Below, one piece after another: positions 2,406 to 14,869 of a stretch of 64,000 bases of DNA. Numbering within the stretch: position 1 is the stretch's first letter; every line of letters begins with the position of its first letter. The notes under the pieces are model-generated. The model saw nothing but the letters and a program-made list of their open reading frames with translations. It was not told the DNA's origin and searched no databases. Position numbers and translations under genes: made by a program. Source of the DNA: an uncultured delta proteobacterium. GTDB taxonomy: Bacteria > Myxococcota_A > Polyangia > Polyangiales > Polyangiaceae. The stretch lies in NCBI GenBank assembly GCA_963716725.1, contig CAVQUB010000013.1, positions 160,001-224,000 on the forward strand, written 5' to 3'.

Positions 2406-3325
2406 TGGGCGACGTGCGAAGGCTGTTGCTCGTGGCGGCGTTGGTCGCAGTTTCATCGGGGGCACTCGCTCAGGGCCGCGACGCGACCACGGCCGAGGTG
2501 CTGTTCGACGAAGGCCGCGAGGCGGTGAGGGCAGGCGACTACCCGCGGGCTTGCGCCAAGTTCCGCGAGAGCAACCGCCTGGACCCCGCACCGGGAACGG
2601 TGCTGAACCTGGCCGACTGCGAAGAGAGACTGGGGCGGGTGGCCACTGCTTGGACGCTGTACCGTGAGGTCACGCAGCGCGTGCCAGCGTCGGACGAACG
2701 CCATGGCATCGCGCTCGCGCGCGCGAAGGCGCTCGCGCCCAAACTGCCGAAGCTGACCGTGGCGCTCGCGCCCGGTTCGCCCGTCGGCACCCGCGTGCTC
2801 CGCGACGGCGTCGAGCTCGGCGCCGCGGCGCTCGAGACCGCTCTGCCCGTCGATCCGGGCGCTCACACCATCGTGGTCGAAGCGCCCGGCCGGCAGAAGA
2901 GTTCTCGACAGGTGTCGCTGAGCGAAGCTCAGAGCGAGCGGGTGGTGGTGAGCGCTGGGCCCAAGGCCCCAGGGGCTCCGGGGGCGGATCGCCCCAAGGC
3001 CAGCAGCTCGAAGCGCACCTGGGGCTGGGTGCTCACCGGCGTCGGGGCCGCGGGCCTGTCGGTCGGCACCGTCACCGGCCTGATGGTGCTCGGCGAGAAG
3101 CGCCGCGTGGACGACAACTGCGATCCCGACAAGCGCTGCAACCAGACCGGCATGGATGCCGTCGACTCCGGCCGCACGCTCGGCACCGTGTCCGGCGCGA
3201 GCTTAATCGTCGGTGGCCTGGCGCTGGCCGGCGGAGTGTTCCTGCTCGTGAGCGGCTCGGAAAAACAGCCCGAGACCGCGCTGCATGTCGGGCCGGGCTG
3301 GGTCGGCGCCGTACGGCACTTCTGA
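2405..3325 (+). CDS. Secreted TPR + PEGA-like protein with C-terminal hydrophobic Gly-rich segments
   Basis: Signal peptide; TPR-like AEVLFDEGR...ACAKFRESNRLDPAPGTVLNLADCEE; beta-rich LPVDPGAHTIVV; two hydrophobic segments; C-terminal Phe; abuts the kinase stop. Confidence 0.85.
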   Translation: MGDVRRLLLVAALVAVSSGALAQGRDATTAEVLFDEGREAVRAGDYPRACAKFRESNRLDPAPGTVLNLADCEERLGRVATAWTLYREVTQRVPASDERHGIALARAKALAPKLPKLTVALAPGSPVGTRVLRDGVELGAAALETALPVDPGAHTIVVEAPGRQKSSRQVSLSEAQSERVVVSAGPKAPGAPGADRPKASSSKRTWGWVLTGVGAAGLSVGTVTGLMVLGEKRRVDDNCDPDKRCNQTGMDAVDSGRTLGTVSGASLIVGGLALAGGVFLLVSGSEKQPETALHVGPGWVGAVRHF

Positions 3326-3412: not shown

Positions 3413-3748
3413 ATGACCTTCGAAGAACGACAAGATTGCCTGAAAGCCGGCCGCAACGACCCGTGCCCTTGTGGCTCGGGCAAGAAGTACAAGAAGTGTC
3501 ATCAGTCCGAGGACGAGCAAGCCGTGCACGTCGAGCTCAAGCGACGCGAGCAAGCGGCCAAGGACGCCGCCGCCGCTGCCCTCGCGGCAGGCGAAGACGA
3601 AGACGGACCCAACGCCGGCGGCAAAGACGGTGGCGCAGGCGGCCGTGCCCAGCCCGGGGATCGCGGCCGGCTCCAGTCGGGGTCGGGTTCGAGGGATCGC
3701 TCCCTGAACACGACTGCCAAGAACATGCCGCGCCGCAAGGCGGTTTGA
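3413..3748 (+). CDS. SEC-C motif (Zn-binding) protein
   Basis: [27 protein letters not shown] upstream. Confidence 0.9.
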
Positions 3749-3945: not shown

Positions 3946-4140
3946 TCACGCCGGGATGTTCAGGGTCGCACAACCGTCGTTCTTGGAGTCGTCGTCCGTG
4001 ACCACGACCACGTACTTCTTCACGCCGGGGCGCAGCATGAACTTGTAAGCTGGGAAGAGCTTCACCAGTTGCGCGGCGGCATCCACGCTCTCGATGGCGG
4101 CGAGCGGGTGGTGCCAGAAGTGCGGTAGCGCTTGTGCTCG
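3946..4140 (-). pseudogene. Fragment of a myxobacterial vWA-like domain protein
   Basis: PHFWHHPLAAIESVDAAAQLVKLFPAYKFMLRPGVKKYVVVVTDDDS resembles the LRP...VVVTDD segment of vWA-like lipoproteins; no plausible N- or C-terminus. Confidence 0.45.
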
Positions 4141-4249
4141 CACGAGATCGACACGGACCACCGAGAGGCTTGCGCCCGCGAGCCCGCCCGCCGCCCGCCA
4201 CCCCTTGGCCCGCAGCGTCATTGGTCGTGTTTTTGGCTATGCTGTTCGG

Positions 4250-4606
4250 ATGCGAGTCGCGCCACGCTGGGGTGCCGCGGGTATTTTCGTGCAGGCGGCC
4301 GCCTGCGAAGAGAGCGCCACGGACGCCGCGGGGTCGTCGGCCGGTGGCAGCGGCGCCCAGGTCGGATCCACCGGTGGCGCTTTCGGCCTGGGCGGGGGAG
4401 CAGGTGCGTCCAGCGACGAGAGCAGCGATTCGGACAACGGCGGCAGCGCCTATCCCTCCGGCCCTCACGGCACGCAGGTGGGCGACGTGCTCGCGAACAT
4501 GAACCTGCTCGGCTACCTGCGCGACGCGACCACAGGGCTCGCCAGCGAAGCCGGGCTCGCTCCGCTGAGCTTCGCTTCCGCAGGCGTATGCTGGCGGGCC
4601 TCATGA
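4250..4606 (+). CDS. Short or truncated lipoprotein-like protein (Gly linker + YPxGPxG motif)
   Basis: ATG 4250 preceded by TATGCT; AAAC, Gly/Ser linker, then YPSGPHGTQVGDVLANMNLLGY, which resembles the start of redoxin-like lipoproteins. It ends before any catalytic motif, and the stop overlaps the next ATG (ATGA). Confidence 0.55.
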   Translation: MRVAPRWGAAGIFVQAAACEESATDAAGSSAGGSGAQVGSTGGAFGLGGGAGASSDESSDSDNGGSAYPSGPHGTQVGDVLANMNLLGYLRDATTGLASEAGLAPLSFASAGVCWRAS

Positions 4607-6690
4607 GCCCCGTCGCCGCAGTCGAGATCCTCAGCTCGCTCCTGGCGGTCTGGGTGCTGATGGCGCTCAACCGCCGTGACCCCGACTCCGCGCTTCGATA
4701 CTGGGCCGTCTCGTTCGCGCTCCAAGCCGTCACGACGGCAACCGTCGCCCACAAGCTCGTGGGCCCCGAGCTCCCCGCGCTCACAACGCTCGGTGGCGTT
4801 GCCGCCGGCATCGGCGCGATGTTCTTGGTCTGGGGTACGCTGAAGTACTTGCAGCGCCCGCCGTCGCGCGCCTGGCTCGTCGCTCCGCCTGCGCTCTTGG
4901 TCGTTTCCGTCGTCGCCGTCGCGCTCGAGCTCCCCTTCACGGTCAGAGCTGCGCCGGTCGTGCTGGCCCTGGGCGGCAGCCTGGTTTTCGTGGGCGTCGC
5001 CGTGTTGCGGGACTGGTCGCGTGCGGTCGGCGCACGAGTCGCCGGCCTAGGCCTGACGCTCTACGGGCTCCACAGTTTCGACTACGTCGTCGTCGCCCAG
5101 ATGCCCAGATTGCTCCCCTGGGGGCACGCGCTCGCCGCATTCCTCCAGGTGATGATCTGCGTTGGCTTCGTCCTTCTGTATTTCGAGCGCGCCCGCGCCC
5201 GGCTCGCGCAGCAAGAAGCTCACTACCGCGCGTTGTTCGAAAACGCGGTCGTCGGGATCTTCGTTGCCCGCGCGGACGGCACCCTGGTGGCCGCAAACCG
5301 CTCCCTCGAGGGCCTGATCGCGGGCAGTGGGTCCCTCGACGGTCGCGACCTTCGCGCGTTCTTCGAACAGGCCTCGGACTTCGATCCGCTCTTCGAGGGC
5401 AGCGGCGCGAGCACGACCCTCCGCTGGAAGGCCGATGACGGTCGGCTCCTCGATGTCCAGGTGCACACCCGGCGGGTCGAGCAGCCCGAGGGAGCGGTGA
5501 TCGAGGGCGTGGTCGTCGACCTGACGCGCATGGCGCACCTCGAACGCCACTTGGACCAGGTCCAACGCGCGGCGGTCCTAGGCCAGCTGGCGGGAGGCAT
5601 CGCGCACGACATCAACAACGTGCTCACCGTGGTGCTTGCCAATGCGGAGATGCTCAGCAGGACGACCCAGCCTCGACCCGAAACGAGCCGGCTGGTGGAC
5701 GGCATCCGGCAAGCAACCCGGCAGGGAGCCGGGTTGACGCGACAGCTCCTGACCTTCACCCGGCGGCACCCCGCAGTGATGGAGTCCTTCGAACTCGGAC
5801 CACGAGTCGGCGATGCCGTCCGGATGCTGGAGCCCTCGCTGGGGGAGCAGATCGTCGTCGAACTGGATTTGCCAACCACCGGCTGCGGCATCCACGCCGA
5901 TCCTCGGCTCGTCGAGCAGCTCGTCGTCAACTTGGTGATCAACGCCCGCGATGCGATGACGAGTGGCGGCCGCTTGACGGTGCGAGTGGGGGCGACGGAT
6001 GCGTCCCACTCCGTGCCGGCCGCGGAGCGGGTCGTCCTCGAAGTGACGGACACCGGCATGGGGATGACTCCGGAGACGGCCAAGCGTGTCTTCGAGCCCT
6101 TCTTCTCGACGAAGGAACAGGGCACCGGTCTCGGGTTGGCAGTCGTTCAGCGGGTGGTCGAGCAGTCCTCGGGCACGATCAGCCTCGACAGCGAGGAGGC
6201 AAGAGGCACGACCTTTCGGGTGTCTTTCCCCAAGGTACAGGTCGATGCCGGCGCCAAGGCCCTTCGCGCGGAGCGGGGCTCGGGCGCCGGGGTCGCCGCT
6301 CGGGTCCTCGTGGTCGAGGACCGCGAGGACGTGCGCGATGTGATTCGCGAAACGATGCGGGAGGCTGGCTTCAATGTCATCGCGCCGGAGACGCCCGGTG
6401 AAGCCATCGCGCAATTGAACGATGGCTTGGTCGTGGATCTGCTGATCACCGACGTGCGCATGCCGGACTTCTCGGGTCCGCAGGTCGCGGACGCCTTGCA
6501 TGCGCGCTCAGCTGAGGTTCCGGTGATTTTCGTATCCGGGTACTCCGATGAGGAGGGCCTCTTGACCTCCCGCGACCCGAACCTCGTCCGCTTCATTCCC
6601 AAACCCTTCACACCCGACGCCCTGGTCGGTAGCGCCCGCGAGCTGCTCGCGCTCGCGTGCAGTTCAGCCAGGAGTGCGAGGCGGGGCTAG
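4603..6690 (+). CDS. Hybrid sensor histidine kinase (7TM-PAS-HisKA-HATPase-REC)
   Basis: About seven TM segments; PAS YRALFENAVVGIF; H-box GIAHDINNVL; N-box NLVINARDAM; DTGMGM; FFSTKEQGTGLGL; REC VLVVED...DLLITDVRMP...FIPKPF. Confidence 0.93.
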   Translation: MSPVAAVEILSSLLAVWVLMALNRRDPDSALRYWAVSFALQAVTTATVAHKLVGPELPALTTLGGVAAGIGAMFLVWGTLKYLQRPPSRAWLVAPPALLVVSVVAVALELPFTVRAAPVVLALGGSLVFVGVAVLRDWSRAVGARVAGLGLTLYGLHSFDYVVVAQMPRLLPWGHALAAFLQVMICVGFVLLYFERARARLAQQEAHYRALFENAVVGIFVARADGTLVAANRSLEGLIAGSGSLDGRDLRAFFEQASDFDPLFEGSGASTTLRWKADDGRLLDVQVHTRRVEQPEGAVIEGVVVDLTRMAHLERHLDQVQRAAVLGQLAGGIAHDINNVLTVVLANAEMLSRTTQPRPETSRLVDGIRQATRQGAGLTRQLLTFTRRHPAVMESFELGPRVGDAVRMLEPSLGEQIVVELDLPTTGCGIHADPRLVEQLVVNLVINARDAMTSGGRLTVRVGATDASHSVPAAERVVLEVTDTGMGMTPETAKRVFEPFFSTKEQGTGLGLAVVQRVVEQSSGTISLDSEEARGTTFRVSFPKVQVDAGAKALRAERGSGAGVAARVLVVEDREDVRDVIRETMREAGFNVIAPETPGEAIAQLNDGLVVDLLITDVRMPDFSGPQVADALHARSAEVPVIFVSGYSDEEGLLTSRDPNLVRFIPKPFTPDALVGSARELLALACSSARSARRG

Positions 6691-6697
6691 CGCGGCG

Positions 6698-7351
6698 CTA
6701 GCCCTGTTCGATCGCGATACGATCGAGCTCGGCGCGGCTCAGATGCTGCTGCGCGAGGCCGAAGATGATGTTCTCTTCGCGGAAAATGTGCAGCCGCAAA
6801 TGCTCGACCAGGACGCGGCACTGACGGACTCCCCACGCCAGCGCGACCTTCCCGGAATCCGGATCGGGCAAACGCTTGAAGAGGCCGATGAACGCGCACG
6901 CCGCCGCGGTGTGCTGAATGTCCTTGACGTGGTCGTCCTCGAGCACGTCGACCCCGGTGCGCTTGTCCGCCGAGCCAGCGTGCTCCCCGGACGCGATCAG
7001 GCGCTCCCTCAACAGCGGGAAGAGCTTGCGCTCCTCCCGGCGATGGTGCGGCGTGATCTCGGCGTCCATGAACGCGAAAAACTTCGTGAGGACCGCCCCG
7101 GCTTCCGGACTCATTCCGGTCTTCTCGATCTCCGCGAGCGCGGTCTCGAGCATGCCCAGCTGCTCCCCGATGTTGCGGTGGTCGTCGACGAGCCGCTTCA
7201 GAAATGGGTGGAGAGCGTCGTAGTCGAGCGCGACCGTCGCGGGCGGCGCGTAGGCGTCCGGTGGCTCCATGGGTGAGAGCTCGTCGCCGCCGGCGTCCTT
7301 GTCCACGTTGCGGTGCAAGGGATCCGTCTCGGCGAGCTTGCGCATGTCCAT
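6698..7351 (-). CDS. Hemerythrin-like (HHE cation-binding) domain protein
   Basis: Duplicated HHE motifs: LVDDH...HHRREERKLFP and LEDDH...LHIFREENIIF. Start is ATG 7351 or 7345. Confidence 0.85.
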   Translation of the reverse strand: MDMRKLAETDPLHRNVDKDAGGDELSPMEPPDAYAPPATVALDYDALHPFLKRLVDDHRNIGEQLGMLETALAEIEKTGMSPEAGAVLTKFFAFMDAEITPHHRREERKLFPLLRERLIASGEHAGSADKRTGVDVLEDDHVKDIQHTAAACAFIGLFKRLPDPDSGKVALAWGVRQCRVLVEHLRLHIFREENIIFGLAQQHLSRAELDRIAIEQG

Positions 7352-7509
7352 GATGCCGGGTGCATACCACCGCGAGGGCGACGACACCCGAGAAAGTCCA
7401 GACCCACGCATGGACAACGCTTGGACGCGCGCGCTCAGAAATCACGCAACCCAGTCCGACACGGTGCCGAGTGGACCGCTGCTCAGATCGAGCAGAAGGA
7501 CTCCAATAC

Positions 7510-8910
7510 ATGTCACCAAGGACCATCAGCCACCCATCATTTCTAATCGCCGCGGCTCTGAGCTTTGCGCTGGCCTGCACCGGCGGCGACGACTTCGAGC
7601 CCAGCGATGAAAGCAACACCGGGGGGGCATCGGCGGCTGGCGGCAGCGGCGGAACCCAAGCATCCGGCGGCTCTGGCGGCGGTTCCAGCGGGGGCGCTGG
7701 CGGCTCGTCGGGATCCACGGGGAGCGGCGGCGTAGGCGCCTCCGGTGGCAGCGGTGGCAGCGGTGGCAGCGGTGGCAGCGGTGGAAACCCGAGCGGCAAC
7801 CCCGACGGCACCGGCTGCGTGGTGAATAGCGAGTGCAGCAGCGGGATTTGCGCCGACGGCGTCTGTTGCCAGACCGCCTGCGACGGCGAGTGCTCCAGCT
7901 GCAACCTGCCGGGCCAAGCCGGCACCTGTTCGCCGCACGCGGCCGACACCAACCCCGAGGGCGGCTGCCTCGGCGGCGCCACGGCCTCCGGCGCGTGCAC
8001 GGGCACCTGCGACGGCAAGGGCGCGTGCAAGTTGCCCGGCGCCGAGAAGCTCTGTGGCGCGACGGCCTGCTCGAGCGGCAATCAAACCGGAAGCTCCTGC
8101 GACGGCAAGGGGATCTGCGCGACCCAGCAGGTGCCTTGCTCGCCCTATGTGTGCGGCGCTAGCGCCTGCAAGGCGGCGTGCAGCGCGGATGCGGACTGCG
8201 TGGCTGGGCACTTTTGCAAGACCGGCGCCTGCACGGCGAAACAGGAGCTCGGGGTCGCGTGCTCCGCGGGCAATCAGTGCAAGAGCAACAACTGCGTCGA
8301 TGGCTCGTGCTGCTCCAGTGCGAACTGCGGCGCCAGCTTCTCGTGCAGCACCGGGACGTGCAAGTGCAACGGACAGACCTGCGCCACCGGCGACGCCTGC
8401 ATTGCCTGGTACGAGGACGCCGACGCGGATGGCTTTGGTGACAAGACGAAGACCGTGAGCGGCTGCTCGAGCAAAGCGCCGGTCGCCGCCGGCAAGACCT
8501 ACGTCAAAGACGCCACCGACTGCTTCGACTCGAACAAGAACGCCCACCCCGGTCAGACCGCGTTCTTCACCGCGCCGCTGAGCAACGGCAGCTACGACTA
8601 CGACTGCAACGGCAGCGACGACCAGAAATTCAAGGACATCGGGACCGGCAAGTGCGTGGACTGCAGCGCACCCAACGAGAGCTTTTGCGGCATTCCTGAG
8701 GTCAAGTGCGGCTTTGCGCTCATGGGCGGAGGGACCCTCGAGAGCATGGGCTTCGACTGCAACCTCCCGAACTACTGCGGGGGCCCCAAGACCACCGAGG
8801 GCTTCGTGACCAACGTGCCCTGCGGCGGCTCCGCCGACCTCAAGCGCTGCTTCGCTTGTGCCCAGAGCACCCCGGCCAGCCAGGGCTCGACCCAGCAACA
8901 GTGCCGCTGA
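7510..8910 (+). CDS. Cys-rich lipoprotein with Gly linker and Asp-rich putative metal-binding motif
   Basis: Lipobox ALAC; Gly/Ser linker; CxSGxCxDGVCC repeats; WYEDADADGFGD...DCFDSNKNAHPGQ...DYDCNGSDD; GAAGGA upstream. Confidence 0.88.
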   Translation: MSPRTISHPSFLIAAALSFALACTGGDDFEPSDESNTGGASAAGGSGGTQASGGSGGGSSGGAGGSSGSTGSGGVGASGGSGGSGGSGGSGGNPSGNPDGTGCVVNSECSSGICADGVCCQTACDGECSSCNLPGQAGTCSPHAADTNPEGGCLGGATASGACTGTCDGKGACKLPGAEKLCGATACSSGNQTGSSCDGKGICATQQVPCSPYVCGASACKAACSADADCVAGHFCKTGACTAKQELGVACSAGNQCKSNNCVDGSCCSSANCGASFSCSTGTCKCNGQTCATGDACIAWYEDADADGFGDKTKTVSGCSSKAPVAAGKTYVKDATDCFDSNKNAHPGQTAFFTAPLSNGSYDYDCNGSDDQKFKDIGTGKCVDCSAPNESFCGIPEVKCGFALMGGGTLESMGFDCNLPNYCGGPKTTEGFVTNVPCGGSADLKRCFACAQSTPASQGSTQQQCR

Positions 8911-9009
8911 TCCCAAACGACCCTGAACGCGCCGTATCCCGCTCGAGGGACGGCGCGTTCGCCTTTTGTGTTGCCGCGCGGCGGCGGCGCCAGCAGCGTC
9001 GACCGCGAC

Positions 9010-9622
9010 GTGAGACCGCTCTGGCCACTCTGTGCGCTCGCCCTGGCCTGCGCGCCCCTGCCCTCGCCGCGGCAGCCGCGCCCGGGTGAGATCGAGCACA
9101 TCGTGGCCGTGCAACCCGACCCGGGGCAGCGCGCCGGCATCTTGCTGCTGGCAGTTCCACGGCGAGCTCCTGCGCACCGGTGATCTCTTCGCGGTGCTCG
9201 ACGAGAACGGATACCGAGGGCTCGTGCGCACCCGCCGCCACGCGAGCATGGACTGCGACCACTGCCCGGGACCCCTCGTCGAGGCCGAGCTCGAATCCGG
9301 TCAGGGGCCCAAATCGGTCGGCACCATCGCGGTCGGCCCGGTCGAGGGCGCGCTGCCGAAGGCGCGCATCGAGCGGGTCGCGCGCGGAGCGGCGCCCAGC
9401 GCGACCTGGCGGCCAACGCTGCAGGTCGATCTCGACGGCGACGGGAAGTGGGACTGGGTCGAGGTGGAACGTTGCGGACACGCGGTTCCGACAAGCTGCG
9501 CTGGCTCCAGCGAGGTCTGCGACATGTTCTGCACGGCCGTCGCCCGCGCTGGCAAGGAGCCCGACCCTGCGCTGATGCGCTGTCGCTCCGTCGTTCCCGA
9601 TCTCGAAGACTGCGCTCCTTGA
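9010..9622 (+). CDS. Putative lipoprotein, split by an apparent frameshift near 9160
   Basis: One frame gives VRPLWPLCALALAC-APLP...GILLLAVP. The other frame continues GELLRTGDLFAVLDENGYRG...DCDHC...VDLDGDGKWD...CAP*. Confidence 0.6.
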
Positions 9623-9655
9623 CGTCGGGAGACATCGAAGACAAGTTGCTCCGCG

Positions 9656-10408
9656 ATGATCAAGGTTGGCGACCGCGCTCCGGACTTCACCCTCGCAGAC
9701 CACCTCGGCCGCAAGCTGAGCCTCGCGGATTTTCGTGGCAAGCGACACGTGATGCTCCTGTTTTACCCGCTGGACTTCACCCCTACTTGAAGCCGCGAAG
9801 TACCAGCGCTGGAAGCGCTGGCAGGCCGCTTCGCTCGAGCCAATACGCAACCGCTGGGGTTGAGCGTAGACAGCGTGCACTCGCACGCGAATTGGGCCGC
9901 CGGCTTGGGCGGCGTCTCGTTCCCGCTCCTCGCTGACTTCCATCCCAAGGGCGCCGTCGCGTCGGCGTACGGCCTGTACCTGGAGGCCTTGGGCATCACC
10001 GATCGCGCCACCGTGATCATCGACGCCGACGGCATCGTGCAGCATGCGTCCTCGGTGACGCCAGCCGGAAGCCGCGACATCGCCGAGCTCGCCGCGCTCT
10101 GCGAGGCGGTCAACGCGAAACACTCGGGACCGCTCACGCCCCCAGTCGCGCCGCCCGGCGTGGCTGGAGCGACGCTGTTCGTGAAGACCAACTGCGGATT
10201 TTCCCGGACCGCCCTCGCCGCGCGCACCAACCTGCACCTGGAGTCGGGCCTGAACGTGAAGAACGTCAGCGAAGATCCGGCAGCGCTGGCCGAGCTCGCG
10301 AAGCTCACCGGAAAAGAGCAGGTCCCCGCCCTCGTCTTGGACGGCGAAGTCACGCTCGAGACGCCGGTGATCGTAGCGAAGCTGGTGTCCCGAGCCACGA
10401 GCCTGTGA
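9656..10408 (+). CDS. Selenocysteine-containing peroxiredoxin (AhpC/TSA, AhpE-like) fused to a glutaredoxin-like domain
   Basis: ATG 9656 gives MIKVGDRAPDFTL...LLFYPLDFTPT-TGA(9788-9790)-SREVPALE..., in frame with ORF 9860..10408 (SVDSVHSH, FPLLADFHPKGAVASAYG, DRATVIID, then KTNCGFS...EQVPALVLDG). The TGA sits at the peroxidatic Cys of PxxxTxxC. Confidence 0.9.
9803..9821 (+). promoter_or_regulatory. Bacterial SECIS-like hairpin
   Basis: Perfect 8-bp stem CCAGCGCT/AGCGCTGG with a GGA loop, starting 12 nt after the in-frame TGA. Confidence 0.75.
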
Positions 10409-10459
10409 GCTCGCCGCGACGGCGGCGCGACCCCGCGCCGCGTGCTAGCCTCGGCGACC

Positions 10460-11818
10460 ATGGGAGTGAAGGGGTTGCTTGGGGTGGGAGCGGTGTGCTC
10501 CCTGAGCGTTGGGCTTCTGTTCGCGTGCGGCGGTGACGGCAACGCCGGCTTGCCCGGCAGCGGCGGCGTTGCCGGGAGCGGTGGTGTCAACAGTGGTGGC
10601 GCTGGCGGCACCAGCAGCGGCGGCACCAGCAGCGGCGGCAGTGCTGGCAGCGGCGGCAACTTCGGAGGAGCCGCGGGTGCAGGCGGCGCGAGCGGAGGGA
10701 CCGGCGCGGTGGACGGCGGCGGCGCCGGTGGCACGGGACCGACCTGCAACAGCAAGCCCACTGACGATCAGGACAAGGACGGGTTCACCGGCGCGGAAGG
10801 CGACTGCGACGACTGCGATCCGAAGGTGAACCCTGGCGCCATCGAAGCCCCGACCAAGACCGGGGCGACTCCGAAGGACGACGACTGCAACGGCAAGGTC
10901 GACGACTTGCCCGCGGCGTGCGACGACGCGGTAGCGCTGGACGAGCCCGATCCGGCCATCGCGGCGAAGAGCATCGAGCTGTGCAAGAAGCCGGCTAACG
11001 ACAAGGACTGGGGCCTGGTGAGCGCGAAGTGGACCTTGCCCGACGGCGTCGGCATTCCAACGGGGAGCGAGGCCAACTACCACCTGGGTCACGGCGCCCT
11101 CTCGGCCTTCGGGACCAACGGCAAAGTGCAAGCGGGCAAGCGGATGCTCGGGCTGTCGAGCGGGACGGCGCGGCAACCGGCCGACCCCGGCTACCAGGAC
11201 GTCAGCGGATTCGACAAGGGGTTCAAGTCGGCCAGTCCGCCCGGCTACCCGAAGGAGTCGCCCGCCTGTCCGAACGTGACGACCGGGGAGCCCCACGACG
11301 GCGTCGCGCTCGAGGTCATGGTGCGCGCGCCGACCAACGCCGTCGCGTTCTCCTTCGACTCGAATTTCTACACCTTCGAGTGGCCCTCCTACGTGTGCAG
11401 CGAATACAATGACTTTTTCCTGGCATTGATGGCTCCGACTCCGGCCGGGCTCGCCGATCCAAACGTGCTGTACGACGCGCAAGCCAACCTGATCAGCGTC
11501 AATTCGGCACTGCTCGATGTTTGCGGTTGCGCCAGTGGGCCGCCCTGTACCGCCGGCACCAAGTCCTATTCGTGCGCGCAGGGTCCGACCCTGCTCGCAG
11601 GCACGGGGTTCGGCAAAGACTCCTCTGGCGGAGTCGACCACGGCGCGACCGGTTGGCTGGTCACGACGGTGCCGGTGGAGGGCGGCAAGACCTTCAGCAT
11701 GCGATTCACGGTTCACGACTCGTCGGATGGAATTCTCGACTCGACCGCCCTGGTCGACAACTTCACCTGGCTCTTCTCGGACGCGCCCAGCAAACCCACG
11801 ACCATCGCCAAGCCCTGA
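10460..11818 (+). CDS. Lipoprotein: Gly linker, Asp-rich metal-binding motif, choice-of-anchor-L-like beta domain
   Basis: Lipobox LFAC; DQDKDGF...DCDDCDPKVNPGA...DDDCNGKVDD; LSSGTA, FSFDSNFYTFEWPSYVCSEYNDFF, DSSDGILDSTALVDNF. Confidence 0.85.
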   Translation: MGVKGLLGVGAVCSLSVGLLFACGGDGNAGLPGSGGVAGSGGVNSGGAGGTSSGGTSSGGSAGSGGNFGGAAGAGGASGGTGAVDGGGAGGTGPTCNSKPTDDQDKDGFTGAEGDCDDCDPKVNPGAIEAPTKTGATPKDDDCNGKVDDLPAACDDAVALDEPDPAIAAKSIELCKKPANDKDWGLVSAKWTLPDGVGIPTGSEANYHLGHGALSAFGTNGKVQAGKRMLGLSSGTARQPADPGYQDVSGFDKGFKSASPPGYPKESPACPNVTTGEPHDGVALEVMVRAPTNAVAFSFDSNFYTFEWPSYVCSEYNDFFLALMAPTPAGLADPNVLYDAQANLISVNSALLDVCGCASGPPCTAGTKSYSCAQGPTLLAGTGFGKDSSGGVDHGATGWLVTTVPVEGGKTFSMRFTVHDSSDGILDSTALVDNFTWLFSDAPSKPTTIAKP

Positions 11819-11821
11819 TCT

Positions 11822-13396
11822 TCACTTCACCGTGACGCTCCAGGGGAAGACCTCGACGTGCCACTCCTGGGGGTGGGCGTACTTGCCGATGGTGATCGAA
11901 AGCATGCGCTTCTGAACGCACTCTCTGGCGCCCCCGTCACCGCTCATGCCGCCGGCGGTCGAACCGTCGGGTCGGAAGCCGCAGGAGCCGGAGTAGCTTT
12001 CGCTCGCGGCGCCGACCGCCTTGAGCTTCGCGCACGCCGCGGCAGCGGTCGCGGCGACGGCATTCACCTTGTTCTGCACGGCCACCTTGTCGATGGGTTT
12101 GAGCTCGCCGCCCGCTGAGGTGGCGGTCGCCTGGGGCTGCGGGGACTCCGCGGGCCCGGCGGGTGCTGGAGTTGGCGTCGTGGGGACCGGGTCGGCGGCG
12201 GCGGCCGTGGCAGAGCGCGGACGAGTGCCCACCGCCACGGGTTCGGAGCGCGACGTCGAGCTCGGAAGCGCGGGCGACGTCGTCGGCTCCGGTGTCGCGG
12301 CGGGCGGCGGACGGCGGACGCTACCGCCGGCACATCTGCGCCGGCGCCGTAGAAGAAGATGACCCGCTCCAGCGGCAACGACCACGACAGCGCCCACGGC
12401 CACGAGCGCCACGACGCCAATTACGATGGGCAGCATCGACGAACGGCGCGGCCCCGCGCCCGTGACGACGGATTGAGTCGCGCCGACCGCCGCCGGCGGA
12501 GGTGCGCTGACGAAGGATCCGCTCGCGAGTCCGTCGAGCGCGTTGAACGCCGCGCTTGCGTCCGAGAAGCGCTGAAGCGGATCGCGGGCGACGGCACGGG
12601 CGAACCAGGCATCGAAACCGGTGGGCAACGCCTGCTGCATGCCGTACTCGCGGGCGCGATCGGAGGCGGGCGCCATGGCCTCCATCAGCGTCTCCCGAAA
12701 CAAGGCGCTCAGGTTGGCCGACGGATCGTTCGCCGTCCGCCAGTAGTGGCTGCCGGTGAGCAAGCGGAACGCCAACAGTCCCAACGCCCAGACGTCCACC
12801 GCCGGCGTGATGGCGGCCCGGGGATCACTCTGCTCCGGCGCCATCCAGAGCGGGGTTCCGACCTGGCCGGTCCCCGAGTCCTTGGCCTCGGCCGCCAGCT
12901 TCGCGATGCCGAAGTCGAGCACCTTGACCTGACGGCTCGCGGTGGCGCTGTGCACCTCCGCGAGGAAGACGTTCTCCGGCTTGATGTCCCGGTGCACGAT
13001 GCCCACCGAGTGCGCCGCACCGAGCGCGTGACAGAGCTGCCGAAACACAGACAGGAGCTCGCTGAAGGGCATGGGGCCGCAGCGCTGCGCGAGTGCGCCG
13101 AGATCTTCTCCCTGCAAGAGCTCCATGGCCAGCCAAGGGATCCCCATCCGAGGGTCGACGCCCGCGGCGATCACCTCGACGACGTGCTCGCTCGGCACTT
13201 GACCACCGATGCGCGCTTCTTGCTCGAAGCGCTCACGCATGCGCGGCTCTGCGACCAGAGTCGGGTGCATGACCTTGAGCGCGCGTCTCTGGCCAGTGCT
13301 GATCTGTTCGACCACCCAGACGCCGCCCATGCCGCCCCGCGCGAGCTCTCGCTCGACCCGAAAGTCACCCCCGACGATGGCGCCCGCGACCAGCAT
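11822..13396 (-). CDS. Membrane Ser/Thr protein kinase
   Basis: RGGMGGVW, ALK, HRDIKPEN, DFGIAK, GTPLWMAPEQ, DVWALG; TM segment; Pro-rich linker; small Cys-containing C-terminal domain. Apparent compensating indels at ~12310-12366. Confidence 0.92.
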   Translation of the reverse strand: MLVAGAIVGGDFRVERELARGGMGGVWVVEQISTGQRRALKVMHPTLVAEPRMRERFEQEARIGGQVPSEHVVEVIAAGVDPRMGIPWLAMELLQGEDLGALAQRCGPMPFSELLSVFRQLCHALGAAHSVGIVHRDIKPENVFLAEVHSATASRQVKVLDFGIAKLAAEAKDSGTGQVGTPLWMAPEQSDPRAAITPAVDVWALGLLAFRLLTGSHYWRTANDPSANLSALFRETLMEAMAPASDRAREYGMQQALPTGFDAWFARAVARDPLQRFSDASAAFNALDGLASGSFVSAPPPAAVGATQSVVTGAGPRRSSMLPIVIGVVALVAVGAVVVVAAGAGHLLLRRRRRCAGGSVRRPPPAATPEPTTSPALPSSTSRSEPVAVGTRPRSATAAAADPVPTTPTPAPAGPAESPQPQATATSAGGELKPIDKVAVQNKVNAVAATAAAACAKLKAVGAASESYSGSCGFRPDGSTAGGMSGDGGARECVQKRMLSITIGKYAHPQEWHVEVFPWSVTVK

Positions 13397-13594: not shown

Positions 13595-14869
13595 ATGACC
13601 GGACCGCGTTCGACCGAGCTCCTGACACGCGCCGAGCGACTTCTGCCGGGCGGGGTCAACAGCCCCGTGAGGGCGTATCGCGCGGTCGGTGGCAACCCGC
13701 CCTTCATCGCCAGCGCCAGCGGCGCTCGACTCACCGACGCCGACGGTCGACAGTACGTCGACTACGTGGGCTCTTGGGGTCCCGCCATCTTGGGGCACGC
13801 GCACGCCAAGGTCGTTCTCGCGGTAAAGGAGAGCGCGGAGCGTGGGCTATCGTTCGGCGCACCGACGGAGCTCGAGGTGCGCTTCGCCGAGGCGGTCGTC
13901 GAGCGTTACCCCAGCATCGAGATGCTGCGCTGCGTGTCGAGCGGCACCGAGGCGACGATGAGCGCGCTCAGAGTGGCTCGCGGTTTCACCGGCCGTGACG
14001 TGATCGTGAAGTTCGACGGCTGCTATCACGGCCACTCGGACGCCCTCTTGGTCAAGGCGGGCAGCGGCGCGGCGACCTTCGGAAACCCGGACAGCGGCGG
14101 CGTGCCCGCGAGCGTGGTCGAGAACACGGCGACCTTGTCGTTCAACGACGAGCCCGCGCTCCGGGCCCTGTTCCGCGAGAGCGGCGCTCGCATCGCTGCC
14201 GTGATCGTCGAGCCGGTGGTCGGCAACATGGGCTGCGTGCCCCCGGACCCCGGATTTTTGCAGACCCTGCGTGCGCTCACGACCGAGGCCGGTGCGCTGT
14301 TGATCTTCGACGAGGTCATGACGGGCTGTCGGCTGGCGCGCGGCGGTGCGCAGGAGCGCTTTGGCATCGTCCCGGATCTGACCTGCCTCGGCAAAGTGAT
14401 CGGCGGCGGCCTGCCGCTGGCCGCGTACGGCGGGCGCCGGGACGTGATGCAGAAGATCGCGCCGCTGGGTCCAGTGTATCAAGCCGGGACCCTGAGCGGG
14501 AATCCGGTGGCAGTGAGCGCCGGCCTCGCCACGCTGGCCGAGCTCGGTCCGGAGGTCTACGCAAGGCTCGAGGCCCTGGGCGCGCGACTCGAGGCGGGGC
14601 TCGCCGAAGCCGTGAAGAAGTCGGGCACCGTGGCCTGCGTCCAACGGGTGGGCTCGATGCTCACCTTGTTCTTTCACCCGGGACCGGTCCGATCCTGGAC
14701 CGATGCCGATCGCTGTGATCGCGAGCGCTTCGGTCTTTGGCACCGCGGGCTGCTCGAGCGCGGTGTGTACTGGCCAGCGTCGCAGTTCGAGGCTGCATTC
14801 ATCAGCGCGGCGCACACGGAAGCGGACATCGACGCGACGGTGAAGGCCGCTGGCGAAGCGCTGGGCTGA
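13595..14869 (+). CDS. hemL: Glutamate-1-semialdehyde 2,1-aminomutase
   Basis: PGGVNSPVRA, SSGTEATMSA, GCYHGHSDALLVKAGSG, FDEVMTG, LGKVIGGGLP, YQAGTLSGNP, SQFEA. Confidence 0.97.
   Translation: MTGPRSTELLTRAERLLPGGVNSPVRAYRAVGGNPPFIASASGARLTDADGRQYVDYVGSWGPAILGHAHAKVVLAVKESAERGLSFGAPTELEVRFAEAVVERYPSIEMLRCVSSGTEATMSALRVARGFTGRDVIVKFDGCYHGHSDALLVKAGSGAATFGNPDSGGVPASVVENTATLSFNDEPALRALFRESGARIAAVIVEPVVGNMGCVPPDPGFLQTLRALTTEAGALLIFDEVMTGCRLARGGAQERFGIVPDLTCLGKVIGGGLPLAAYGGRRDVMQKIAPLGPVYQAGTLSGNPVAVSAGLATLAELGPEVYARLEALGARLEAGLAEAVKKSGTVACVQRVGSMLTLFFHPGPVRSWTDADRCDRERFGLWHRGLLERGVYWPASQFEAAFISAAHTEADIDATVKAAGEALG

Follow-up and report, generated by a model that had tools for sequence, protein, structure and literature searches.

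A 64,000-nucleotide (nt) stretch of DNA from an uncultured delta proteobacterium of the family Polyangiaceae (assembly GCA_963716725.1, contig CAVQUB010000013.1, positions 160,001–224,000; this whole stretch is called the window below, and coordinates count from its first letter) contains, at 9656..10408 on the plus strand, a single intact gene for a selenoprotein of 250 residues. The gene comprises 250 codons and a TGA stop, and its read-through translation is an AhpE-like peroxiredoxin (Prx) carrying selenocysteine (Sec), fused to a domain that resembles glutaredoxin (Grx) and the N-terminal domain of glutathione S-transferases (GST). The in-frame TGA at codon 45 is almost certainly read as Sec by SelB and tRNA-Sec, directed by a downstream hairpin; the frame, its conservation and the machinery are observed, and from these sequence data we infer the insertion of Sec itself. 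The best overall explanation is that the protein is a Sec peroxidase that is recycled via its fused domain with glutathione (GSH), which is considered probable.

From the ATG at 9656 to the terminal TGA at 10406-10408 the translation runs in a single frame, with the TGA at 9788..9790 as its sole internal stop. This codon comes directly after the segment YPLDFTPT, i.e. at the peroxidatic position of the PxxxTxxC motif, so that the predicted Sec residue, U45, completes the motif P38-x3-T42-x2-U45. The N-terminus of the read-through protein, MIxVGxxAPxF, agrees with that of the full-length homologs. The frame, the motif and the conservation in the family all agree with an earlier note on this DNA, which had described a hidden selenoprotein gene with a TGA at codon 45 of an otherwise open 250-codon frame.

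Mechanical calling of open reading frames (ORFs) covers the gene only in two pieces, one of 44 amino acids at 9656..9790 and one of 182 amino acids at 9860..10408 (plus strand, TTG start), the latter replacing the gene; the same note had remarked that the ORF track shows only these C-terminal 182 residues. The public databases treat the relatives alike. Among the 120 best database homologs, 113 begin at query residues 47-84, which is where a call resumes once it has met a TGA, and these truncated proteins are named, for example, “glutaredoxin” or “redoxin domain-containing protein”. NCBIfam contains no model covering the clade of Sec-Prx with a Grx-like domain. The clade is systematically cut short in public gene calls.

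The TGA codon is conserved to a high degree. A scan of one genome per species gave 542 relatives. The best 80 of these and the window together make 81 genes, and since one of them (L076) is without its N-terminus, 80 were examined at the TGA site. The aligned codon is TGA in 79 of the 80. The exception, L089, has GGA (Gly) at positions 3133-3135 of its locus, and the hairpin downstream of it is still strong (z-score -3.48), which points to a Sec gene altered by a recent T-to-G mutation or misread in sequencing. Cysteine stands at the U45 site in six full-length database homologs (P0004, P0009, P0011, P0013, P0034 and P0040), so an in-frame UGA aligned with the Cys of homologs, as in other bacterial selenoproteins, is found here. 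A further full-length database protein, P0007, has Trp at the Sec position, which is perhaps a TGA that the gene caller translated as Trp.

When metagenome contigs were scanned in turn, with the six Cys-form proteins as seeds, TGA was still present in 76 of the 77 loci covering the site, the only one with TGC being L126, which is P0009 itself. Homologs of the protein nearly always have TGA at this site and only rarely Cys; this was the comparison proposed in the earlier note. Nearer to the window, two further genomes of the genus also have TGA (78-79% identity, among 61 nearer relatives). A sample of the phylum, 401 genomes, gave a close match in 14, each with one TGA. The distribution is wide but patchy, as these 14 of 401 genomes exemplify: carriers are labelled Myxococcota, Acidobacteriota, Bdellovibrionota, Eiseniibacteriota, Planctomycetota and Pseudomonadota, and one of them, Paraliomyxa miuraensis SMH-27-4 (locus L053), is a cultured organism.

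The codon at 9788-9790 is unchanged in contigs of three other studies (X5 and X10 from DNA, X19 from an RNA library), and the TGA is not an assembly error because these contigs match the window there; the TGC or TGT that could have been expected in other reads, had the codon been misread, does not appear in them. Parts of the gene appear in X19 and in a further RNA-library contig, X20; such libraries may contain DNA, so this is no proof of transcription.

The genome that carries the window possesses the complete Sec machinery. The search for selA, selB, selC and selD that had been suggested found all four: selA (467 bits), selB (281 bits) and selD (302 bits) score over their cut-offs, and a canonical tRNA-Sec of 98 nt adjoins selB. 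The selD gene has one in-frame TGA (contig C6:227368-228291 of the genome, locus L010) and probably encodes a selenoprotein itself, judging from its sequence. ARAGORN also reports a second “tRNA-SeC(tca)” outside the window (C13:29480-29558), which is 79 nt long with a 7-bp acceptor stem and is without the long variable arm; its UCA anticodon is odd, and its assignment as a tRNA-Sec is doubtful.

Downstream of the TGA, on the plus strand, the minimum free energy structure contains a bipartite hairpin at 9795..9834 that resembles a selenocysteine insertion sequence (SECIS). Its lower stem pairs 9795-9801 with 9828-9834, and its upper stem pairs 9803-9810 with 9814-9821 around an apical GGA loop (9811-9813). 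The upper stem, CCAGCGCT-GGA-AGCGCTGG (9803-9821), is a perfect 8-bp helix that begins 12 nt past the TGA, which places the loop 20 nt after the UGA. Bacterial SECIS elements are stem-loops that lie shortly downstream of the UGA and carry a G in the apical loop; the hairpin at 9795-9834, with its GGA loop, has both features.

Several observations nevertheless weigh against this hairpin as an insertion signal when the window is considered by itself. It is ordinary for a GC-rich gene: the 66-nt fold has an energy of -25 kcal/mol and a z-score of -1.04, with 28 of 200 shuffles equal to it, and the 42-nt segment that starts at +12 has a z-score of -0.88 within the gene, 15% of the other 42-nt segments being as stable. 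The scan of 9600-10000 against Rfam at E<=10 returned no SECIS family, and the sole match was a chance-level one to chrB-a (13.8 bits against a gathering score of 43.9); we know of no general bacterial SECIS model in Rfam. The comparison with Cys-form genes given below has a control of only three genes.

The hairpin is nonetheless taken to be beyond chance because of the evidence from the family, that is, the conservation of the TGA, a folding minimum at +12 and covariation, and not because of the window alone. The mean folding profile of 80 genes in 42-nt segments has its global minimum starting 12 nt after the U of the UGA (z -1.56), and this segment is the most stable one of the whole gene in 21 of the 80. 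The mean z-score at the hairpin is -1.61 in the Sec genes of the species genomes (n=79) and -2.05 in those of the metagenome loci (n=76), whereas in the three Cys-form genes the same segment gives +0.04, +1.65 and +2.61, i.e. the hairpin is missing.

When the two-stem structure of the window is applied to the 47 fused genes, 72.2% of the cells pair, against 35-47% in slid registers. Two-sided changes occur in 62 cells against 33 in shuffles, and the covariation score is 0.257 against 0.169 in shuffled alignments, none of 500 shuffles being as high. These figures have to be read with caution, since it was the window that supplied the structure and the genes are not independent, being relatives of each other. 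The covarying pair 18-32 is seen as A-U, U-A, G-C and C-G, and the third base of a Pro codon (A, U or C) varies jointly with a Leu/Gln/Arg change on the opposite strand of the stem. The register of the hairpin differs between the fused and the unfused groups, and when all 80 genes are folded together, column by column and without gaps, the energy is only -1.33 kcal/mol, so that there is no single consensus structure. Another register, pairing 18-29 with 41-51 in alignment A2, has 68.9% of its cells paired but does not covary, 129 of 500 shuffles reaching its score; it is not claimed. The 8-bp hairpin with a G-rich loop that the earlier note had described is thus present and covaries in the family, but within this window alone it does not exceed chance.

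The Prx domain comprises approximately residues 1-155 (9656..10120, plus strand) and contains the catalytic residues P38, T42, U45 and R117. Residues 4-130 match the Pfam family AhpC-TSA (PF00578) with an E-value of 1e-34 and 119.6 bits against a cut-off of 26. In alignment A3, U45 (read as Cys) and R117 are invariant and P38 and T42 nearly so; the PxxxTxxC/U motif and the conserved Arg of peroxiredoxins are both present.

The closest sequence in the PDB is that of AhpE from Mycobacterium tuberculosis (1xxu, E 2.4e-27), and the top seven sequence hits are all AhpE. An AlphaFold2 model of the whole protein, built from 52 aligned sequences, has a mean predicted local distance difference test score (pLDDT) of 96.7 and a predicted TM-score of 0.91. 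AhpE is also its best Foldseek match, with a TM-score relative to the target of 0.94, a root-mean-square deviation of 1.3 Å and 38% identity, and the top 11 fold hits are again all AhpE; among the chains listed none spans both domains (TM-score relative to the query, TMq, at most 0.59). The domain thus lies closer to AhpE than to Prx1, Prx5, Prx6, PrxQ or Tpx, which bears out its earlier description as AhpE-like. Identity with the selenoprotein PrxU was considered and rejected, the NF040737 equivalog giving 85.9 bits against a cut-off of 270; the prototype PrxU, that of Eubacterium acidaminophilum, is said to be the subject of Sohling 2001. A second cysteine, C149 (10100-10102), lies in the final helix of this domain; it is conserved in at least 90% of the fused forms and is often absent from the unfused relatives. 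It is a candidate resolving residue, of a kind that the Prx domain of 1-Cys peroxiredoxins lacks.

A Pro-rich linker of approximately residues 156-170 (10121..10165, plus strand) follows, residues 156-171 being without secondary structure in the model (pLDDT 90-95). The C-terminal domain, approximately residues 171-250 (10166..10405, plus strand), is a thioredoxin-fold domain of the Grx/GST-N kind with a cis-Pro, P224, and the pair E235-T236. The active-site motif C180-G-F-S183 is encoded at 10193..10204 (plus strand). The domain alone matches the Pfam models Glutaredoxin (PF00462; 34 bits against 22.9) and GST_N_3 (24.2 against 22), and each of the two models matches 43 of 46 members of the family. 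Modelled by itself, the domain has the topology beta-alpha-beta-alpha-beta-beta-alpha (pLDDT 95.3), with the active-site Cys at the N-terminus of helix 1, and Foldseek places it among Grx, GST and the N-terminal domains of SspA (TMq 0.67-0.78). The family model, the fold, the position of the Cys and the cis-Pro are all those of a glutaredoxin, so the earlier assignment of the domain to the Grx fold stands, the Pfam match, the model and the fold hits being in agreement.

The domain is as close to the N-terminal domains of GSTs as to Grx. Its profile aligns a P-x-L...E-S-x-x-I segment with GST delta, a segment by which GSTs and Grx2 bind the gamma-glutamyl moiety of glutathione. In NCBIfam no model reaches its cut-off on the domain, the nearest being the Uxx-star Grx-like (seleno)protein family (29 bits against 66). 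Four residues, C180, S183, N192 and P224, are invariant in all 46 domains of the fused Sec genes, while the two residues between C180 and S183 vary. The Cys of the C-terminal domain is lost in two of the six Cys-form fusions, P0013 and P0040, which read WTGRS and GRGLS.

Fusion is not universal in the clade. Among the 80 genes, 47 are fused, one of which (L064) is cut by a contig end with the domain still present, and 33 are short; of the short genes, 32 are complete up to their stop codon and L079 runs into a contig end. In six of the 32 complete unfused relatives (L067, L075, L078, L082, L087 and L092) a separate Grx-like ORF directly follows the Prx gene (E 2e-22 to 4e-15), at about 3470-3740 of each locus, in another frame or past the stop. 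These adjacent ORFs suggest that the two domains are linked in function. In a quick tree of the Prx domains, rooted at its midpoint, 44 of the 47 fused genes lie on one side and the split forms near the stand-alone ones; the fusion label requires three changes on this tree against 25.5 in shuffles, many of the forks being unresolved.

The proposed chemistry is derived by analogy with AhpE and mycoredoxin, with Prx-Grx hybrids and with glutathione peroxidases (GPx). Once UGA 45 had been recoded to Sec through the downstream hairpin, the AhpE-type domain would use U45, together with P38, T42 and R117, to reduce a hydroperoxide and would thereby form a selenenic acid. By the chemistry of the family, U45 very probably performs this peroxidase step. 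The fused domain, carrying C180-x-x-S183, would bind glutathione and restore the selenol, and recycling by way of this domain and glutathione is, on balance, the favoured route by the same analogy. Glutathione might attack the Se-OH group, with C180 then removing the glutathione as in the monothiol glutaredoxin route, or C180 might attack directly to give a U45-C180 selenenylsulfide that glutathione resolves. The resulting glutathione disulfide would be reduced by the genome's own glutathione reductase.

The genome contains genes for this supply. The glutathione synthetase gene gshB scores 316.5 bits against a cut-off of 299 and glutathione reductase 621 against 480, while a gene similar to the plant-type Glu-Cys ligase stays under its cut-off (415 bits against 463). 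The proposed recycling with glutathione is opposed by several findings: an E. coli-type gshA was not found in the genome, which is 84% complete; a Grx-like gene is missing from the surrounding 3 kb or so in 26 of the 32 complete unfused relatives, and therefore a Sec-Prx of the clade can work with another reductant; C149 rather than C180 could be the resolving residue; the neighbours of the gene in the window are not redox genes; and the 27 related loci have no generally conserved neighbours (102 of 176 flanking ORFs scanned).

Some of these findings are accommodated by an alternative that is rather unlikely overall, in which the protein is the same selenoprotein and works without glutathione, C180 or C149 being purely resolving and the reductant of the selenenylsulfide being thioredoxin or else a flavoprotein disulfide reductase dedicated to it. 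The high conservation of C149 and the scarcity of nearby Grx-like partners among the unfused members fit it. It is also favoured by three of 27 fused loci in which a class-I flavoprotein disulfide reductase lies directly downstream on the same strand (L032:829-2361, L036:3704-5173 and L038:3594-5144); these proteins reach no named family above cut-off, the nearest being MerA and Lpd at about 310-325 bits, and are possibly dedicated reductases. Against a mechanism free of glutathione, the C-terminal domain retains the cis-Pro together with an E-S/T segment whose counterpart in the alignment with GSTs lies where these bind GSH, residues with a role in GSH binding; nearly all domains of the family match both the Glutaredoxin and the GST_N models, and gshB and glutathione reductase are present in the genome.

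Recycling through the fused domain with glutathione also has to be weighed against a role of the selenoprotein mainly in signalling, as a peroxide-sensing relay that oxidises or glutathionylates a target instead of performing bulk detoxification. Such a relay would suit the two kinases near the gene, one of the hybrid histidine type upstream and one of the Ser/Thr type, on the minus strand, downstream. It is nonetheless quite improbable, as the 27 related loci do not share this neighbourhood and no finding connects the kinases with the gene.

The earlier note had described the C-terminal domain as a monothiol “CGFS” Grx-like reductant or Fe-S module, which would place it in class II, and this part of the description is not upheld. 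If it were correct, the domain would bind an Fe-S cluster and the protein would be a sensor or a cluster carrier and not a self-recycling peroxidase. The motif of the window does read C-G-F-S, which is the commonest variant both in the 47 fused genes (19) and in the 120 best database homologs (83), and yeast Grx5 is found at rank 13 of the fold hits. The two middle residues are free to vary among close relatives, however, the other variants in the fused genes being CMFS (13), CGAS (7), CGPS (3), CGHS (2) and CGSS, CIFS and CAFS (one each). The Grx4-family monothiol model NF008086 gives only 13.2 bits against a cut-off of 205 for the domain of the window, and TIGR00365 has only weak hits, in 12 of 46 domains. 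The domain of about 80 residues is also without the long loop before the Cys, and the GST-like E-S segment replaces the Grx C-terminal motif. An Fe-S role is accordingly very improbable.

The reading of the TGA as a true stop, in a pseudogene, in two small genes or through an assembly error, draws on the gene callers that cut most database homologs there and on a hairpin that is not significant in this window alone, and it is the least probable of all, given 44 upstream codons that are in frame and conserved as protein in 79 other genes, a catalytic motif that ends exactly at the TGA, an identical TGA in the contigs of other studies, complete Sec machinery and a downstream structure that covaries.

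Both halves of the architecture have known counterparts. Sec-peroxiredoxins with a TxxU motif are a catalogued selenoprotein family, for which one survey counts 12 in genomes, three of them in Anaeromyxobacter dehalogenans (PMC1794560), and another 253 in Global Ocean Sampling (GOS) reads (PMC2398784); a further paper lists the Prx selenoprotein family as experimentally verified and cites Sohling 2001 (PMC13188914). The protein described here resembles this PF00578 family in having Sec for the peroxidatic Cys in PxxxTxxU and a SECIS hairpin just downstream. It differs in its fused C-terminal Grx/GST-N-like domain; no such fusion is mentioned in the accessible parts of these papers or in the GOS supplement. 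The section on novel fusions in the GOS paper, as far as accessible, describes Prx-PP2C (phosphatase) and others, not Prx-Grx (PMC2398784). Unfused reads of this AhpE-like clade (..YPLDWT.TU.. ..DFHPKG..) occur in the 2008 sequence supplement of the GOS data; the reads there are short, and none of those from a Prx shows a CGFS motif.

In sequence and fold the nearest known protein is the 1-Cys Prx AhpE of M. tuberculosis (Rv2238c; PDB codes 1xxu, 4x0x and 5id2). AhpE is reportedly recycled by a separate glutaredoxin-like protein, mycoredoxin-1, and a low-molecular-weight thiol, and the same logic is proposed for the fused protein. Unlike AhpE, the fused protein has Sec in place of Cys, a reductant domain in the same chain and the additional conserved C149, and its thiol is probably glutathione, not mycothiol.

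The order of domains, a Prx followed by a Grx fold in one chain, is that of PGdx from Haemophilus influenzae and its relatives. PGdx is a glutathione-dependent peroxidase with a Prx5-type Prx, a dithiol Grx and a peroxidatic Cys. In contrast, the Prx here is of the AhpE type and the second domain has a C-x-x-S motif, with only weak hits to TIGR02190 (“GlrX-dom”) in 4 of 46 domains; the protein is thus a one-chain Prx and Grx, but without the Prx5-type Prx and the TIGR02190-type Grx of a PGdx-type hybrid, and an assignment to that type was rejected. With Sec-containing GPx the analogy is only functional: the proposed cycle would lead from selenol to selenenic acid, to a Se-S-glutathione or Se-S-protein intermediate and back to selenol, with GSH as the reductant. 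The scaffold and the motif (the Prx PxxxTxxU) are unrelated to those of GPx, and GSH would be handled by the separate fused domain.

No publication combining Sec with an AhpE-type Prx and a fused Grx came up in a full-text literature search that did not extend to most subscription journals. Sec-Prx and Prx-Grx hybrids are each known, and the combination of a Sec AhpE-type Prx with a tethered C-x-x-S domain was not found described. The view that the architecture had not been characterised therefore holds for the fusion, and has to be narrowed for its parts, since Sec-Prx of the TxxU kind have long been catalogued and unfused members of the clade are found in the 2008 supplement.

The surroundings of the gene in the window consist of the hybrid histidine kinase with a receiver domain upstream (4132-6690, plus strand), a Gly/Ser-rich secreted protein with a MopE-like metal-binding motif (10442-11818, plus strand) and the Ser/Thr protein kinase (11822-13396, minus strand) downstream, and a class-III aminotransferase (13595-14869, plus strand). 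The long ORFs of the interval 6690-9650 have no Pfam match, and a scan for promoter and terminator consensus sequences found none.

As a tentative generalisation, the clade may represent a natural, self-contained glutathione-dependent selenoperoxidase on a Prx scaffold, which would perform GPx chemistry by another route, through a U45-C180 selenenylsulfide or a Se-SG intermediate. It would be almost wholly Sec-using and spread over several phyla of soil, groundwater and wastewater bacteria, and its split, fused and stand-alone forms might record the capture of a reductant. For annotation, the finding means that public gene calls truncate the selenoproteins of an entire clade. Bench study of the gene is possible in a cultured carrier, Paraliomyxa miuraensis SMH-27-4. 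If the proposed reading is true, the clade, with its rare Cys forms, would be a compact natural system in which the effects of Sec and Cys on a peroxiredoxin can be compared, and would show the recycling of a selenenic acid by a tethered monothiol domain.

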